The notes: a model not told the origin generated them from the letters alone. DNA of 64,000 nucleotides from Okamejei kenojei (GCA_035221665.1 CM069142.1:37200001-37264000), one strand, 5' to 3'; shown: positions 776 to 39,904, counted from the stretch's first letter. Program-made: numbers and translations.

Positions 776-1618
776 GGACACAAAAAGCTGCAGTAACTCA
801 GCGGGACAGGCAGCATCATTGGAGAGAAGGAATGGGTGACGTTTCGGGTCGAGACCCTTCTTCAGACTGATTAGGGATAAGGGAAACGAGAGATATAGAC
901 GGTGATGTGGAGAGATGAAGAATATCTGTTTGTACGGTGAAAATGATTAGCTAGTGCGACTTGGGTGGGGGAGGGATGGACACCTTCGCTCAGCTCGCGT
1001 GAACCAACCTGATATCCCGGTTGCCGGACACTTTAATTCTCCTTCCCATTCCTACAAAGACCTTTCTGTTCTCGGTCTCCTCCGTTGTCAGAGTGAGGCT
1101 CAACACAAATTGGAGGAACAGCATCTTATATGTTGCTTGGGCAGCTTACAGCCCAGTGGTATGAATATTGATTTCTCTCACTTCAGGTAACCCCGGTATT
1201 CCCCCTCTCTCTATCCCTCCCCCACCCAAGTCGCACTAGCTTCTCATTTTCACGCTACAAACAGCTTACAATGTCCCGTTTCCTTTATCATTGTTACATT
1301 TTTGCATATCTCTCATTCATTGTTCTTTATCTCTCCACATCACCATCTATATCTGGTGAAGAAGGGTCTCGACCCGAAACGTCGCCTATCTCCTTCGCTC
1401 CTTAGATGCTGCTGCACCCGCTGAGTTTCTCCAGCTTTTTGTGTACTCACCATCTATATCTCTTGTTTCCCTTATCCCTAACCAGTCTGAAGAAGGGTCT
1501 CGATCCGAAACGTCACCAATTCCTTCTCTCCAGAGATGCTGCCTGTCCCGCTGAGTTACTCCAGCTTTTTGCGTCTACCTTCGGTTTAAACCAGCTTCTG
1601 CAGCTCCTTCTTACACAT
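776..1618 (+). mobile_element. Penelope-like element remnant with inverted pseudo-LTRs and GIY-YIG C-terminal fragment
   Basis: ORF 954..1190 (PVAGHFNSPSHS..KLEEQHLI..LGSLQPSGMNIDF). Terminal repeats are inverted and carry the CTGAAGA..GAAAC motif. TSD caatgccaagct (764-775) / caataccaagct (1619-1630). Confidence 0.85.
1355..1446 (+). mobile_element. 92-bp solo pLTR/hammerhead module nested in a Penelope element
   Basis: Perfect 15-bp TSD tcaccatctatatct at 1340-1354 and 1447-1461. Confidence 0.85.
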
Positions 1619-1944
1619 CAATACCAAGCTCGTGGTTAGTGGGCCAGCGCTTGCTTCTCTCCTCACTTTCAAGAGAAAGCAGAACTCTATTCAATTCAGC
1701 GATGTCACACTTTGCATATTGGTGACTAGTAGTTGAAACTGGAATCTGCTTCCTTTCTCATTGTTTTCAAGTTCCTCTCTGAAATTCCCCGTATAATTAC
1801 AGCAGCTTCACCACTTGACCGTCATGCTTTTTGATTCCTTTACTCGAAACCTGTCCTTCCACGTTGCAGGCACATATTGCAACAGCTCTGATCTTCTGAA
1901 TTTATCATAATTTTCTCTAACCTCACATTCAATTCCACAAGGAC

Positions 1945-2375
1945 ATAAGTTACCCCTAATATGTAGGGAGTGGATGTAATAGTGGGATAACATTGAACTA
2001 GTGTGAACGGGTGATCGATGGTCGGCCGGTTGGGTGGTTGGAGGAGGAATTTGTCTGACCATGGTAATAGGCTGTAACCATGGGGTGGCACAGAGGTGCT
2101 AGAGCTGCTACCTCACAGCGCCAGAGACCCAGATTCAATCCTGATCTCTGTGTGGAGTTTGCATGTTCTCCCTGTGACTGCATGGTTTTCTCTGGGTGCT
2201 CCGGTTTCCTCCCACATTCCAAAGACAAGTGGGTTTGCACATTAATTGGCCGCTTTAAACAGCCCTTAATGTGCAGCGAGTGGCTGCAAAAGTGGGCTAG
2301 CCTAGAACTAATGTGATGGTCTGCATGTACTTGGTGGGCCGTGGGGTCTGTTTCAATGTTGTATCTTGCAAATCA
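1945..2375 (+). mobile_element. tRNA-derived SINE (HE1/V-SINE-like), a partial 3' piece followed by a fuller copy
   Basis: tRNA-like head (ggtggcacag..gattcaatcc) and V-SINE core gtgtggagtttgcatgttctccc..ggtttcctcccacattccaaagac. Confidence 0.8.
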
Positions 2376-2399
2376 ATTCGATAAAGTAAACCTTGGGGA

Positions 2400-4090
2400 T
2401 ATGAGAGACTGCAGATGCAGGAATATTGAGCAAAACCCAAAGTGCTGAAGGAACTCAGCAGGTCAGGCAGTATCTGTGGAAAGGATGGACAGGTAACGTT
2501 TCAGGTCAGGACCCTTCTGATTATAGTAGGGGGAGGAGAGCTAGAAAAGAGAGGTGGCGATGGGACAAAGCCTGGCAATTGATAGGTAGGTAAGGATTGG
2601 GGGCATTTAATTGGCAGATGGGAAATGACAGAGCTGAAATGGAAACTGACGATGTGAAAATAAGGCGTGAAATGAAAAGGGGATTTCCCCAGAAAAATGG
2701 GGAATTCAGAGATGGAGATGAGTATAGGAAGGAGGGGAAAGGAGCAGGTTGACTGGTGAGGGTGCCGGTCTTTTGGTTTGTTACGTTGAACATGCCTTGT
2801 TCCAAACATACCCCAGCACCATCCCCCTACCGTTTTCTCTGTTACATTGACAAATATATCGGGACCACCTCCTGCACCCAGTTAGAAAGCGCGGATTTCA
2901 TTATATTTACCCTTCTACCCTGCCCTTAAATTCACTTGAACTCCCTTTTCTCCCCTTTGAGGACACTTTTCTTCCCTTTCTTGACCCCTTTGTGACACTT
3001 TTCTCCCCTTTCTTGATTTCCCTGTCTCCATCACAGGGCTCAGATTTCTACGATCGAACCCACTGGGACACACAGCCACCATGACTCCACCTCCGCCAAA
3101 CATGCCTCTTGCATGGATTATTCTCAATTTCTGCGTCTCTGCCCCATCTGCTCCCAAGAAGAGGCTTTCCACTCTAAGAGCTCCAAGATGCCCACTGTCT
3201 TCAGTAAGCGTGGTTTGAATGGACCCTCACCCATGTCGCCTCTGTGACCAGCAGTTCTGCTCTCATGACTCTCCATCCAGACAGAGTTTCCCTGGTCCTT
3301 ACCTTTCACATCACAAGTCTCCGCATCCAACATGTCTTTCACAGACATTTTCACTGCTTCTATGGTGAAACCACCACAGGTCAGCATCTTCCCATCCCCA
3401 CTGTTTCCGCTTTCTACAGAGACCATCCCCTCCTCAATGTTTGGTTTGAATATCCCTTTCCACCTAATCCGTCCCCTCCCGAGGTACTTTCCCCCGCAAC
3501 TCCAGGGGACACCACCCCTCTCACTTCCATCCGAGGACCGCAGCAGCCCTTCCAGGTGAGACAGGGGATCTTAGGCACGTTTTTCAATCTTGTCTCTTGC
3601 ATCGGCGATGTGGCCTCCTTTACATCGGGGAGACCAAGCCGAAACTAGGTGACCGTTTTCTCAACACTTGCATTGTGTCTGCCAAGGCATGCGGGATCTC
3701 GCTGTTGTTAACCATTTTAACCCCCGTTTCTATTCCTATCCTGACCTTTCTGTTCTTGGTCTCCTTCATTGTCAGAGCGAGGCCACACACCCATTTTCCT
3801 TCCCCCTTTCTGACACCCTTCTGTCTCCTTTTCACCTCTAATCTTTGTCACATTTACCCAACCCATCCACCAGATGATGCTTGCTGTCCCGCTGAGTTAC
3901 TCCAGCTTTTTTGTGTCCATCTTCCATCTATTACTTTCCGGGCTTTCATCCAACCCCCTCTCTCTTTCCTCCAACCTCCCGCCGCGAAACGTCGCCTGTC
4001 CGTTCCCTGCCGAGACACTGCCGGGCCCGTGGAGTCGCTCCAGCAACCTCGCGTTTTGCGCAAGATCCCAGCATCTGCAAGTCCGCGCGT
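2400..4090 (+). mobile_element. Degenerate Penelope-like element
   Basis: Fragments IRGPQQPFQVRQ and RCGLLYIGETKPKLGDRF (GIY-YIG), with degenerate inverted pLTRs at both ends. Confidence 0.75.
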
Positions 4091-4329
4091 CTCCGGGCCG
4101 TGTCTCCCTCAGCAGGAAATCACCGAATGGAGATTGACAATGAGCGAGCTCATCATCAGGAGGGGAAGTTTTATTTTTCATGGGCGACGGGTCCAGTGGT
4201 CCACTTACACTGGTGGTGCAACACACACCTCTCACGCGTTAAATGCAAAGATACAGCGAAAGAACAGTCACACATTCCTAAGTAAACAATGTTACAATTA
4301 GAATAATTCCTAAAACATTCATTTTTAAG

Positions 4330-4700
4330 TTACTCAAGGAAATTGGGACGCCAGCCCCGCTGAAGGTTTACCTGAAAGGAAAGCGTGCGCTTTTGCTCTG
4401 CAGGACCTGTGCAATACTGTAGCGATGTTTGCCGTCCACCACCTGGTGGTGGATCACAGCTCCTCCCTTAGGGCACTGGGACATCTTTGTGCAGCGACGG
4501 CCTCTGTTCAACCGCACCCGGTGAAGGATCAACCTTGGCTGCGGCAGCGACTCGCTGCTGCCCGTGGTACTTGGCCACTGCCGCGTCCCTTGTTATATCA
4601 TCAACCAAGGGAAGATTTCACTCCAAACTCTTCCCCTTTAGGAATCGCGCACGGCATTGCATGTGACCGGCCGGGAAGTCATGGGGTTTCACTTCTGCTT
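4330..4700. promoter_or_regulatory. CpG-rich unique segment, possible promoter/5' UTR
   Basis: CpG density is visibly higher than in flanking intronic DNA and surrounds the candidate exon. ETS-like GGAAGT at ~4674. Confidence 0.4.
4372..4484 (-). CDS. Candidate first coding exon of an unidentified gene (MSQCPKGGAVIHHQVVDGKHRYSIAQVLQSKSARFPF.., phase 2)
   Basis: Non-repetitive, CpG-rich context. Start context acaaagATGt, with an open frame to a good donor CAG|GTAAAC at 4372/4371. Protein not recognised. Confidence 0.5.
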
Positions 4701-4830
4701 TTAATAAAACCCCATTTGCTTGACAGGTTCTTCATTTTTTTGAGCTCGGGCCTAAGGATTAAAGGCCAAGTTCTTGACCTCTAAATACACGTCAGCATAA
4801 TCTCCCTGTAAACGAGGAATGGTGTTCCCT

Positions 4831-6228
4831 CGGCTACACAAAAGGCTGGAGAAACTCAGCGGGTGCAGCAGCATCTAAGGAGCGAAGGAGATAGGCGACG
4901 TTTCGGGTCGAGACCCTTCTTCTGACTGGTCAGGGATCAGGGAGATATAGACGGTGATGTGGAGAGATAAAGAACAATGAATGAAAGATATGCAAAAAAG
5001 TATCGATGATAAAGGGAACAAGCCATTGTAAGCTGTTTGTAGTGTGAAAATGAGAAGCTGGTGCGACTAGGGTGGGGGAGAGAGAGAGAGAGAGGGAATG
5101 CCAGGGCCCGAGGGCTGAGGGAGAGGTGGGAAGGGGAGGAGATAACAAGGGTTAACAGAATTGAGAAAATTCAAAGTTCAAGCCCAAAGGATGCAGACTC
5201 CCCAAGCGGAATATGAGGTGCTGTTCCTCCAACTTGAGGTGTTGCTCACTCTGGCCGTGGAGGAGGCCCAGGACCAAGAGGTCGGATACGGAATGGGAGG
5301 GGGATTTGAAGTGCTGAGTGACCGGGTTGGTTTTTGCGGACCGAGCGGAGGTGTTCGGCGAAACGATTGCCAAGCCTCCGCCTGGTCTCACCGATATAGA
5401 TCATCTGGTATCTGGAGCAGCGGATGCAGTAGATGAGGTTGGAGGAGGTGCAGGTGAACCTCTGTCGGACCTGGAAGGACTGCTTGGGTCCCTGAAAGGA
5501 GTGGAGGGGGGAGGTGAAGGGACAAGTGTAGCATTTCTTGCGGTTGCAAGGGAAAGTGCCCGGGGAAGGGGTGGAGCGGGAGGGAAGGGAAGAATTGACA
5601 AGGGAGTTGCGGAGGGAGCGGTCTTTGCGGAAGGCAGGCGGGGGGAGATGGGAAGATGTGGCGAGTGGAGGGGTCACGTTGGAGGTGGTGAAACTGGCGG
5701 AGGACTATGTGTAGTATTTGCCGGCTGGTGGGGTGAAAGATGAGGACCAGGGGGACTCTGCCCTTGTTGCGAGTGGGGGAATGGGGAGAGAGGGCAGTGT
5801 TGCGGGGTATGGAGGAGACCCTGGTGCGAGCCTCATCTATAGTAGGGGAGGGGAATCCCCGTTCTCTGAAGAATGAGGCCATTTGTGATGCCCTGGTGTG
5901 GAACACCTCATCCTGGGAGCAGATGCGGTAGATGGAGGAATTTGGGAATAGGGGATGGAAGTCCTTACAGGAAGCAGGGTGGGAGGAAGAGTAGTCCAGG
6001 TAGCTGTGGGAGTCAGTTGGTTTGTCGTGGATGTCGGTCAGGAGTGTATCACCTGCACATCACCGTCTATATCTCTTGTTTCCCTGATCCCTGACCAGTC
6101 TGAAGAAGGGTCTCGACCCGAAACGTCGCCTATCTCCTTCGCTCCTTAGATTCTGCTGCACCCGCTGAATTTCTCCAGCTTTTTGTGTACCCTCGATTCT
6201 CCAGCATCTGCAGTTCCTTCTTTAACAC
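4831..6228 (-). mobile_element. Penelope-like element (RT C-terminus + GIY-YIG endonuclease, frameshifted) with inverted pLTRs
   Basis: ORFs 5152-5906 include NLIYCIRCSRYQMIYIGETRRRLGNRFAEH. Perfect 13-bp TSD aatggtgttccct at 4818-4830 and 6229-6241. Confidence 0.92.
6100..6127 (+). ncRNA. Minimal hammerhead ribozyme core in a Penelope pLTR (representative; also 838-865 -, 1487-1514 +, 25723-25750 -, 25764-25791 +, 42988-43015 +, 56635-56662 +)
   Basis: CUGAAGA + helix II GGGUC/GACCC + GAAA + palindromic ACGU + GUC site. Helix I is weak in this copy. Confidence 0.65.
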
Positions 6229-27670: not shown

Positions 27671-27791
27671 CTTGTAATCTCACAACTATAGGGATCTTCA
27701 AATCCAAGTCTTCCACAGCTAGAATAATACCTTTAGCAATTATATCACATCGCATGATGCCACCAAATATGTTTACCAGAATAGCGACTAC
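27671..27791 (-). CDS. SUCLA2: SUCLA2 exon 9 ([40 protein letters not shown])
   Basis: [10 protein letters not shown] motif. Sites tttctctag|GTA and G|gtgagc; 121 nt. Confidence 0.97.
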
Positions 27792-30490: not shown

Positions 30491-32314
30491 ATTTATATAA
30501 AACAGAATGTTGTAGTGGAAGGTAGATATTCAAACTCGAGGTGTGAGTTCCACGGGGATCTGAGCTGGGCCCTCTGCTTTTTGTTATATCTATAAATGGC
30601 CTAGACGTAAATGTAGATGGGTTGGCGAGTCAATATTCTGATGACACCAAAATTGGAGCAGTTGCAGACAGAGGAATTTCGTCAGTACAGCATGATATAA
30701 ATCAACAGCAAAAATGGGTGGAAAAAATGGCAAATGGAGTTTAACTCGAGCAAATGTGAAGTGTTGCACTTTGGAAGGTTGGATGTAAGGAGAGAATATA
30801 CAGTTAATTGCAGGACCCTTAACAGTATTGACATGCAGAGGGATCTTGGAGTCCAAATTCATAGCTTACTAAAGGTATGCTGGGGGGCATTCAATATAAG
30901 AGCCAGGAAGTCATGATGCAACTTATAGGACTTTGATTAGGCCGCATTTGAACTACTGCGTGCAGTTCTGGTTGTCCCCTTATGGGAAAGATGCGGAAGC
31001 TTTGGAGAGGGTGCAGAGGAGGTTTTCCCGAATGTTGCCTGGATTACAGGGTTTCTGTTACAGGGAGAGGTTGGATAGACAGGCAGAATCTTTTTCCGCA
31101 GTGTGGAAATGTCCAACACTAGAGGGCATAGCTATAAGATGAGAGGGGGAAAGTTCAATGGAGATAAGCACAGCATGTTTTTTTTAAAAACACAGATAGT
31201 GGTGGGGGCCTGGAATGCTTTGCTAATGGTGGAGGCAGATACAATATGGCATTTAGGAGGCTTTTAGATAGGCACCTGGGAATGCAGAAAATAGAGGGAT
31301 ATGGATCATGTGCAGGCAGATGAGATCAGTTTAGCTAGGCATTATGTTTGGAAGAAATATTGCCGGCTGAAGGGCCTGTTCCTGTGCTGTACTGTTCCAT
31401 ATACACTTGAATGACTCAATATTGCATTATCGATCTGACTGATTACAAATATTACAGAAATCACTTGAAATGAATACTCAGGGAATTAAAAATGACCAAA
31501 TTAACATTGTCAAGAGATTCATACAGTTTCAGAAAAATAGAACAAATGGTAGAGGTAGAAACCCATGAAAAAAATGGCATAATCAGCCCACGATTCAATT
31601 AATTTGCGCAATACCATAAGACATAGGAATAGAATTTGCCCATAGGCCCATCATGTCTGCTCTGCCATTCGATTACGGTTGATCTATTTTTCCCTGTCAA
31701 CTCACTATCCTGCCTTCTCCCCATAATCTTTGATACCTTTACTAATCAATCACCATTTAAAAAATACCCAATGACGTCCTCTACAGCCGTCTGTGACAAT
31801 GAATTCCGCAGATTTACCACCATCTGGTTAAAGAAATTCTCTTCATCTCCATTCTAAAGGCACTTTTATTCTATGGCTCTGCCCTCTGGTCCTAGACTGT
31901 CCTACTACTGGAAACATCTTCTCCACATCCACTCTACATAGGTCTTTCATAATTCGGTGGGTTTCAATAAGCGAGTTTGGTATTCCGACTGCACATGGCC
32001 AGGTCATAGGTCACTAGCTATGAACAGTCTCGGCAACGGTGGTGCTGCATTGTGTGCAGGCTTGCATTTCATCCGTGGTCGGGGTCGGGCCGGCTCTCCG
32101 TCGCTGCAGGTGCTGTTGAGTTGCTGATGGGCCGTCCCCGTCCCCTCCCCAGTGTCCCGTCCTTGTCTGGAGGTGTCTGGGGTGGCCCTGGGCTGGCGGG
32201 GCGGCCTTGGACTTACAGCCGGCGCTGCAGCCCGCTGGCTCCAGCTTGGTTCTGCAGCTGCTGGCTCCAGCTCGGCTCTGCCTGTCCTGCCGGGTTGGCC
32301 ATCAGCCCCTCCCC

Positions 32315-32773
32315 TCAGTCCGACACAGAGATCCTACTGAAGATGGGCAGCTGCCAGCCCTGTTCGAAGACCAGCGACTCGGAGCCGCTGCTGCTGGAGT
32401 CGTACTGGTCAGAGACAGAGTCTGCAGACAGGCTCCTGTTGGCCATGGGCAGGCCGGGGTACCCGCTGGAGCTGCTGGAGCGGTTGGTGGTGCTGGCAGC
32501 AGAAGCAACCTCCTCCCCCTCCCTTGCCCAGCCCCAAGCCCAGAGTCCAGGCCAACTCTAACTCCAGGTCGGGGTTGAAGGCAACAAAAAATTACAGTTT
32601 TTGTTCAGATCGATTGAATGGCGCAGGCGAGGCCGGGCCCCTCGCTCCTCCTTAGGGTTGTGGATGAAGTGGCAGCGGGTTCACTCCAGCTCCAGAGGAA
32701 CCCGCTCCCCAATGCCCAACCCGGCGACAAGTGCCAGCTACGTTCCCACAGCCGCCACCCCAAGTACAAGACG
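32315..32773. pseudogene. Scrambled fragments of a ZFP36/tristetraprolin-family gene
   Basis: Minus 32500-32315: ..SLSADSVSDQYDSSSSGSESLVFEQGWQLPIFSRISVSD*. Minus 32680-32612: TRCHFIHNPKEERGARPRLRHSI. Plus 32723-32773: GDKCQLRSHSRHPKYKT. Confidence 0.85.
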
Positions 32774-32825
32774 TACTTTCCACATCACCGGCCTCAAATG
32801 TGAACCAAAGCGCTGAATTCGAGAG

Positions 32826-33360
32826 GCAAGGTGAGAATGAACACCCTCAACTGATGTCCTTTGGCAGCTCGTTCCATATACCCACCACCCTTTGTGTGAA
32901 ACAAATGCCCCTCAGGTTCCTATTAAATCTTTCCCCTCTTACCTTAAGTCTCTGTGCACTGGTTCTTGATTCCCCTACTCTGGGTGAAAAGCTCTGTGCA
33001 TTTTCCCCATCTATTCCTCTTGCGATCTTATACATCTCTATCGAACACGCCACATCCTCCTGAACTCCAAGCAATAAAGTCTTAGCTTCCTCAATCTCTC
33101 CCTTCTGCTCAGGCCCTTGAGTCCATGGCAACATTGTAAATCTTCTCTGCACCCTTTCCAGCTTAACAATATCTTTCCTATAACAGGGTAACCAACACTG
33201 AACACAATGCTCCAAGTGCGGCCTCACCAATGTCTCTACAACACAACATTCCAACATCTATACTCTGTACTCTGACTGATGAAGGCCAATGTGCCGAAAG
33301 CCTTCTTGACCACCATATCTACCTATGACGCAAATTTCAAGGAACTATACACCTATCCAT
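32826..33360 (-). mobile_element. CR1 fragment nested in the TIR element
   Basis: ORF 32847..33257 LVRPHLEHCVQCWLP..FTQRVVGIWNELP. Confidence 0.88.
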
Positions 33361-33595
33361 TTACAGTAAACCCTCGGAGGGAGCGGTTTCCGTTCTTACC
33401 GATGACAGTTAATAGACTAAAGGACACAAAGAGCTGGAGTAATTCAGTGGCTGCGGATTTCTAGAGAACATTGATAGATGACATCGGGACCCTTCCACAG
33501 ACAATTCAGTCGGCTGACCTGCTCCAGCACTTTGGGTTGTTTCACTTTAAAACCAGGCATGGTTACCGTGGGGTTCCCATGTCGGCGATTATGGT

Positions 33596-33620
33596 GGGGG
33601 GGGGGGGGGGGGGGGGGGGG
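33596..33620 (+). repeat. G25 homopolymer
   Basis: Directly visible in the sequence. Confidence 0.9.
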
Positions 33621-34066
33621 AAGGAGGTGGCTGCGACGACAGGGGGAGGATGTGGAGAAGGCTGGAAATAAAGGCCTATTGGACAGAGTGACGTGAAAAG
33701 CAGGCAGCTTTTTTAGAATTTATACAGTTTATACAGTCAGCACTTTTTGGTGAATGACCTTTGACAAATCCCATGATTCCTTGCGTTTTTTGGAATACCA
33801 AACTCGCTTATTTCAACTGGGCTCGTAATTTTGTCCGGATTTTTTTTGGGGGGCAGAATGGGTGGACCATCTGTTGCTGAAAAATTGGTGTTCAGCCTGT
33901 ATACCAAAAACAATATGTGATATCCATTTGCGAACTATATTAAAAAAACTTATACCTTATAATGCTCCCAAGTATTTTGGAAGTCTCTGAATGACGGTGA
34001 AATACCTGAAAGGTTATGATTACTAAAATTATTTCACTCTCATTGGTGTGCATGAGGAGCACCTTT

Positions 34067-39592: not shown

Positions 39593-39904
<312 letters not shown>

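Follow-up and report, generated by a model that had tools for sequence, protein, structure and literature searches.

A 64,000-nucleotide stretch of the genome of the skate Okamejei kenojei (GCA_035221665.1 CM069142.1:37200001-37264000, hereafter the window; C12:37200001-37264000 in the 2.76 Gb genome searched) was analysed for a 1.85-kb segment that lies in an intron of SUCLA2, is bounded by terminal inverted repeats (TIRs) and carries pieces of a ZFP36 (tristetraprolin) gene. The segment is very probably a damaged copy of a non-autonomous ISL2EU-type element from a family of several hundred copies with the 3' half of a ZFP36 exon aboard; the exon piece would have been acquired in a single capture, likely via template switching, and is likely a functionless passenger.

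Layout of the window element

The features of the window element are listed below in window coordinates.

31967..31968, no strand: left AT target-site duplication (target A|AT|T), as deduced from 45 element ends and the empty sites of 5 other copies, not from this site
31969..31986, plus: left TIR, 357 exact genome-wide matches (control 0)
31987..32302, plus: left subterminal region and GC-rich left arm of the non-autonomous family, including AGGTCATAGGTCA at 32001-32013
32303..32680, minus: ZFP36 piece in the original orientation (end of finger 2, low-complexity region, NOT1-binding tail, stop and stub of the 3' untranslated region, 3'UTR), frameshifted
32583..32618, no strand: AT-rich, hairpin-like stretch in place of ~60 bp of cargo in the window copy
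32684..32795, plus: inverted piece met in the window copy alone (~35 bp of right arm, then finger 1's end, the linker and finger 2's start)
32845..33354, minus: fragment resembling a long interspersed nuclear element (LINE), stop-broken, in place of the family's right arm
33375..33620, no strand: unrelated short dispersed repeat (~33375-33578) and a G run (33593-33620)
33755..33791, plus: right subterminal region, common to the transposase-coding family; 22-mer matched 1,551 times with no more than 1 mismatch (control 0)
33792..33809, minus: right TIR, by sequence match to the left end
33810..33811, no strand: right AT target-site duplication

The perfect 21-bp inverted repeat that the first-pass annotation had placed around the segment (31966-31986 and 33792-33812) was present, and with as many as 3 mismatches allowed, the window had no match to its 18-bp TIR core beyond these two ends (chance 0.06). 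Since the outer 3 bp belong to the target site (A plus the duplicated AT), the element proper runs from 31969 to 33809. No transposase frame was found inside the 1.85-kb element, as had been stated, and the three ZFP36 signatures lay at the places and on the strands reported: LPIFSRISVSD with its stop on the minus strand (NOT1-binding tail 32350-32318, stop 32317-32315), TRCHFIHNPKEER on the minus strand from 32680, and GDKCQ-LRSHSRHPKYKT on the plus strand. The last belongs to a piece that proved longer than noted, covering 32684-32795 with internal deletions of 21 nt and 11 nt. No intact finger was found in this copy, finger 2 being split by the inversion.

The first ~70 bp of the left subterminal region are common to the transposase-coding family described below. 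About 960 bp of the interior (32796-33754) consisted of other repeats and not of the family's right arm. The LINE-like fragment is a piece of a reverse-transcriptase gene from a high-copy repeat, which we take from its translated motifs to be CR1-like. The filler arrangement at 33375..33620 was not met elsewhere: among 44 matches to a 421-bp query, only the window spanned the query.

A dispersed family with a ZFP36 exon fragment

The window copy is one of many. In addition to the exact matches of the 18-bp end and the 1,551 matches of the 22-bp right-end motif, two independent cargo motifs were matched 292 and 288 times with no more than 2 mismatches (controls 0); native genes make up at most three of the 292. 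Element arms stood beside the cargo in 30/30 loci picked by the finger motif and 30/30 picked by the tail motif (the first 30 exact-match loci for each, the two sets partly overlapping). Both termini were within 1.5 kb in 12/30 loci by strict flags, and one or the other in most. The tail motif was recovered in 16/30 finger-picked loci and the finger motif in 22/30 tail-picked loci, from which cargo-bearing copies number roughly 400-540; the right-end motif occurred in 19/60 sampled loci, so the whole family may, as a rough figure, be near 5,000. Seven to eleven loci with native ZFP36-family genes were removed ahead of the copy counts. Near-identical duplicates and loci in which fewer than 200-250 cargo bases aligned were also left out. 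Both ends were available for 45 elements, of which 33 carried cargo and 12 did not, in a sample enriched for cargo. The same chimeric structure therefore recurs at many distant loci with different flanks, host DNA with an identifiable parent lying between TIRs, which bears out the proposal of a Pack-type mobile multicopy family with ZFP36 cargo. A ZFP36 alignment, many further TIR copies and cargo in other copies were all found, and the lack of any of these had been named beforehand as speaking against that proposal.

The cargo-less siblings (L001, L004, L009, L012, L016, L019, L020, L027, L030, L084, L085, L165) were modular mosaics of GC-rich blocks, some inverted and some with a short piece of host repeat, and these blocks could be other captured DNA. 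A tandem array at C1:89913521-89925625 held five right-end motifs in the same orientation at ~3.2 kb spacing.

The family consensus (1,426 bp, built from 19 full-length copies) matched one place with its bases 316-853, C41:8504932-8505531, with 11 mismatches over 538 aligned bases and four gaps, one of 5 nt in the UTR and three, of 6, 24 and 27 nt, in coding repeats of low complexity. These three gaps recur in the Rhinoraja longicauda protein and are accordingly read as expansions of the donor after capture. The nearest named homologues of the cargo were batoid (skate, ray) ZFP36-like proteins. The C41 donor has two CCCH fingers and no Tis11B_N match, and MED29 lies ~80 kb away, a linkage that we take to hold for human ZFP36 as well; on these grounds the donor is likely the tristetraprolin (ZFP36) orthologue. 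The other two ZFP36 paralogues (C8, C9) matched the consensus over 153 bp only, at 88%, and ZFP36L1/L2 were rejected as donors for this reason. The 9.5-kb donor region and the two paralogue regions were also considered as a source of the GC-rich arms and were rejected.

In the consensus, the cargo is a single collinear in-frame piece with half of finger 1, finger 2, the NOT1-binding tail and a 3'UTR stub. It begins in the middle of finger 1, without two intact tandem CCCH fingers, and falls within one open exon of the donor, of which it is the 3' half and not the whole gene. The "scrambled gene" of the first-pass annotation is hence not a property of the family. A 92-aa Logan protein was also seen in which a batoid-type ZFP36 passes straight from finger 1 and some of finger 2 into the C-terminal tail; it is not this cargo, because finger 1 is included, and it may reflect a collapsed assembly or an isoform with a deletion.

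The junctions record how the piece arrived. The finger-side end fell at the same base in 53/85 distinct copies, and 4/85 copies had ~165 bp of extra 3'UTR joined to sequence that is also present in cargo-less siblings. Because the junctions are shared, we infer that a single capture of 765 bp or more took the place of ~250 bp of sibling interior and that a deletion then led to the major form. Capture of a messenger RNA would be a different route: a LINE-made retrocopy (a processed pseudogene with 5' inversion) could have landed in an existing element and been multiplied with it. A LINE-like fragment does adjoin the inverted piece in the window copy, and the cargo, lying inside one exon, offers no intron loss to read. 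However, the inversion and the LINE are missing from the consensus and the siblings, the cargo replaces sibling sequence and does not interrupt it, and no poly(A) was found in it. The capture stops 25 or ~190 nt past the stop codon, against 857 nt for the donor AATAAA, and the donor AU-rich pentamers (704-774 nt after the stop) were not captured. The retrocopy reading is already largely refuted, and we regard it as very improbable.

When the window copy was compared with the consensus, positions 1-728 were 84% identical, with frameshifts and the AT-rich replacement, 741-885 were inverted, 886-1368 were replaced by the ~960 bp of LINE-like and other repeats, and the last 58 bp were 97% identical. 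Against the donor, 321/374 aligned bases were identical in the minus-strand piece and 67/74 in the inverted piece, and the latter is collinear, in the opposite orientation, in sibling copies. Cargo in both orientations was seen at six loci at four distinct places among 121 cargo-hit loci (a count that includes native genes and duplicates), with breakpoints that all differ. With collinear siblings, differing breakpoints and a filler arrangement without a second copy among the 44 matches, the scrambled look is likely later, private damage and not the design of the element.

The damage also raises the question whether the two ends ever belonged together, as two neighbouring insertions could have been joined by a deletion, so that the 1.85-kb unit was never one element; conclusions on the family would be unaffected. 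The family ends are frequent (at least 1,551), ~480 bp of right arm are gone with ~960 bp of unrelated repeats instead, and the left-flank repeat stops without continuation on the right. Yet the ends are correctly oriented with AT on both sides, other copies hold nested inserts too, and with 1,551-5,000 elements in 2.76 Gb two insertions within 2 kb would not be expected without local hopping. We consider this origin of the window unit unlikely and continue with a single damaged element.

ISL2EU-type ends and a probable transposase-coding partner

Base counts at the 45 end pairs gave WAT for the left end and ATW for the right, and the paralogous empty sites of 5 copies inserted in other repeats (L030, L032, L042, L126, L165) read AATT or TATT. 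A TA-type (Tc1/mariner) target was rejected by these empty sites. As read from the sequence, the target is a 2-bp AT duplication at A|AT|T; insertion at AA|TT without duplication, the element being one base longer at each end, would leave the same sequence. An A|AT|T target with AT duplication is what has been described for ISL2EU (PMC4482050; PMC4122938), together with TIRs that usually begin with GG, a typical and not a defining trait (PMC4482050).

An ISL2EU-type partner, which the first-pass annotation had proposed to look for, was found. Of 27 loci with HTH_Tnp_4, five share the family ends. One of these (L109, C5:104125887-104128319) is bounded by both ends, which are 74% identical over 76 bp and 77% over 73 bp to those of the ZFP36-carrying (Pack) element, and its family has at least 40 scored places. 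A member of this partner family has an open 542-aa THAP+HTH_Tnp_4+DDE_Tnp_4 frame (PF05485, PF13613, PF13359 above cut-off), and the C1 copy contains the left end, the transposase, an opposite-strand YqaJ frame (PF09588) and the right end. A decayed YqaJ homologue was present in the C16 copy and absent from the shorter L109-type copies. The Pack element resembles the partner at the ends only, while some cargo-less siblings retain a longer stretch of the partner's left end. Partner copies diverged from their majority by 3.8-8.1% and the Pack cargo by 5.1% at non-CpG sites; this similar decay is consistent with one period of activity. The THAP-HTH-DDE/YqaJ family is likely the mobiliser and would have supplied the transposase.

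AGGTCATAGGTCA on the left (32001-32013) and the related TGACCTTTGACAA on the right (33755-33767) are subterminal motifs conserved across the family and are likely candidates for transposase-binding sites. We take AGGTCATAGGTCA to be a perfect nuclear-receptor DR1-type motif, and the family may possibly supply thousands of dispersed DR1-like sites.

Several observations were made on the partner and its relatives. The C16 copy (L088:619-2244, ~3024426-3026051) retains an unbroken 542-codon THAP-HTH-DDE frame that is 5.2% diverged, like its broken siblings; its own YqaJ frame is interrupted by a stop, and the left end of the copy houses a nested cargo-less element. The ratio of nonsynonymous to synonymous rates (dN/dS) of this frame, 0.67, is inside the sibling range of 0.51-1.78; domestication is possible, as is survivor bias, this copy having been the top Pfam match. 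At C14:39.77-39.86 Mb, five YqaJ matches (L201-L203, L207, L213) with frames of 205-370 aa and no family ends nearby may represent a domesticated, tandemly duplicated gene. A second, unrelated ISL2EU-like family (L095, L091, L097), with ~35% transposase identity to the partner, has neighbouring YqaJ frames of its own (L211, L214, L206).

Fate of the cargo and its place among captured host fragments

Over 63 copies, nonsynonymous and synonymous changes numbered 872/385, giving a dN/dS of 0.94 (z -0.95) with base-specific rates and of 1.11 without shared sites. The 23 copies that came from DNA or end searches had a value of 1.04, and control frames gave 0.86-1.10. Frameshifting gap runs outnumbered in-frame ones, 188 vs 97 (counts that include alignment noise), and 30 stop gains were observed. 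Non-CpG divergence was 5.1% in the cargo vs 4.9% and 5.5% in the ends, with 18% at CpG sites. An open frame under purifying selection, as in a functional ZFP36-family gene, was not what these copies contain; they decay neutrally, with the cargo no better kept than the ends.

A functional cargo, now or in the past, would be either a 172-aa one-finger ZFP36 protein with a NOT1-binding tail, serving as a CCR4-NOT decoy, or antisense or small RNA tuning host ZFP36 or element silencing. It would account for a consensus frame open from ATG to stop, for finger 2 and tail in frame in 5 copies and for a cargo antisense to the direction of the partner transposase, and the tail is a known NOT1-binding motif (PMC12350847). 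In addition, two Leucoraja erinacea RefSeq gene models, XP_055493223.1 ("ZFP36-like") and XP_055505784.1 ("ZFP36L3-like"), are copies of the element and translate its arm and cargo. When the arm-coded portion of the Leucoraja model was used as a query, 3,701 candidates yielded nothing but the model itself. However, both models are predictions, frameshifted or truncated relative to ZFP36. The ATG lies in the arm where siblings read CGT or CAT and may be a product of CpG decay. Open GC-rich frames are common in all three consensus frames, and a recent capture at 98% identity is expected to be in frame without selection, while dN/dS is neutral and the cargo DNA has no extra conservation. A function is therefore improbable, and we give a slim chance to the wider idea that hundreds of dispersed, partly intronic tristetraprolin 3' halves form a regulatory reservoir (antisense or small RNA vs ZFP36, or one-finger NOT1-binding decoys) that reshapes AU-rich mRNA decay.

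For the passenger element that we favour, the following course is proposed. Cargo-less, GC-rich elements that share its ends and arms exist, and in one of them gap repair or fork restart may have put no less than 765 bp of ZFP36 genomic DNA in place of ~250 bp of interior, possibly with a 4-bp microhomology at the finger-side junction. A minority form retains ~165 bp more 3'UTR, which the majority is without, and the long form would have come first. Transposase provided in trans by the THAP-HTH-DDE/YqaJ family would then have carried copies to AATT-type sites; the copies then decayed without selection on the reading frame. After insertion in the SUCLA2 intron, the window copy would have undergone its private inversion, deletions and the replacement of its right arm by other repeats.

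Some findings weigh against this interpretation. The copies examined are ~85 of 400-500. The finger-side junction showed the 4-bp microhomology in 1/3 cargo-less siblings, and the confinement of the cargo to one exon leaves an RNA template admissible in the strict sense. The family ends begin with AAGCG, that is, with AA and not the usual ISL2EU GG; beyond the TIR, the Pack and partner ends are only 74-77% alike, and a closer partner may have moved the element. The left flank of the window copy is a repeat without continuation on the right, so the insertion site may be rearranged. As for the passenger status, an open frame of 172 codons leads in the consensus from an ATG of arm origin to the stop, finger 2 and tail stood in one frame in 5 distinct copies of 85 examined (2 with the arm ATG), and two dN/dS values were lower: 0.81 in raw form, before correction for the substitution spectrum, and 0.72 (z -2.2) in 11 Pfam-picked copies. 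The raw value was rejected as a selection signal, being spectrum bias (corrected 0.94), and the second is attributed to ascertainment and became 1.06 without shared sites.

The location in a SUCLA2 intron agreed with the flanking exons, both on the minus strand like SUCLA2 itself:

39638..39780, minus: SUCLA2 exon upstream of the host intron; best PDB match the mitochondrial ADP-forming succinate-CoA ligase beta subunit, E 3e-23
27671..27791, minus: SUCLA2 exon downstream of the host intron, by motif and splice sites

The number "intron 8" follows what we take to be the human exon numbering. If the element is included in SUCLA2 pre-mRNA, the cargo would be mostly sense, with ~75 nt antisense. 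The sense and antisense pieces are different parts of ZFP36 (consensus 1-728 vs 741-885), and because these do not overlap they cannot pair with each other. In four sequencing runs from one study (the type is guessed and may be DNA), family ends and cargo pieces were present, and no record spanned the window locus.

Host-gene capture by TIR elements had been described as best documented in plants; it is also documented in animals (PMC8277862). Tan et al. 2021 report 370 animal Pack-TIRs in 100 genomes, of which 4 were multicopy (1.4%), the example being 3 copies of a 5'UTR piece; the superfamilies were mostly hAT and TcMariner with some PIF-Harbinger, and elephant shark had 0 Pack-TIRs (PMC8277862). 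The terms "ISL2EU", "ZFP36" and "skate" had 0 occurrences in the main text or the 12 supplements searched (PMC8277862). The skate family is like those multicopy Pack-TIRs, as described there, in being a non-autonomous TIR element whose host DNA has an identifiable parent and was amplified to other chromosomes, and in its GC-rich cargo and short junction microhomology; it is unlike them in its several hundred copies of coding sequence (PMC8277862). With ISL2EU (PHIS) elements it has in common the A|AT|T target with AT duplication and a partner with THAP+HTH+DDE and YqaJ (PMC4482050; PMC4122938), whereas its ends start with AA and not GG and it is non-autonomous with host coding DNA aboard (PMC4482050). 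Host coding DNA in the ISL2EU group was not found described in the portions of the literature consulted.

Capture of a conserved host gene at high copy number is also known from the fungus Pseudocercospora fijiensis, where a histone H3 gene taken up by a hAT element occurs in hundreds of dead copies with the original intact; in contrast, the skate case concerns a vertebrate, half a gene and neutral plus CpG decay, and the fungal copies owe their inactivation to repeat-induced point mutation (RIP) (PMC6710886). The bat Helitrons of Thomas et al. 2014 are likewise vertebrate DNA elements that spread host fragments to hundreds or thousands, although they are rolling-circle elements without TIRs or target-site duplications and carry mostly 5' gene parts and promoters (PMC4224331). 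No paper on a ZFP36-carrying skate element was found in the openly accessible literature searched, and a Repbase or Dfam entry may exist. Pack-TIRs in animals are thus known, and hundreds of copies of a coding fragment made by an ISL2EU element were not found in print in the literature searched.

In conclusion, the window copy is a wreck, and any function of its family would be putative. The family nevertheless matters in several ways. The two Leucoraja erinacea RefSeq models that are copies of the element represent an annotation trap. An older form of skate ZFP36 survives in the consensus, which, as does the Rhinoraja protein, lacks the donor's three repeat expansions. Gene-fragment hitch-hiking on a cut-and-paste element at plant scale also occurs in a jawed vertebrate, with a coding cargo, an ISL2EU vehicle and copies some hundred times as numerous as in the three-copy vertebrate example of Tan et al. 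Finally, with its cargo-less siblings, long-UTR form, short major form and two-open-reading-frame partner, the family records its own history, which makes models of capture testable.

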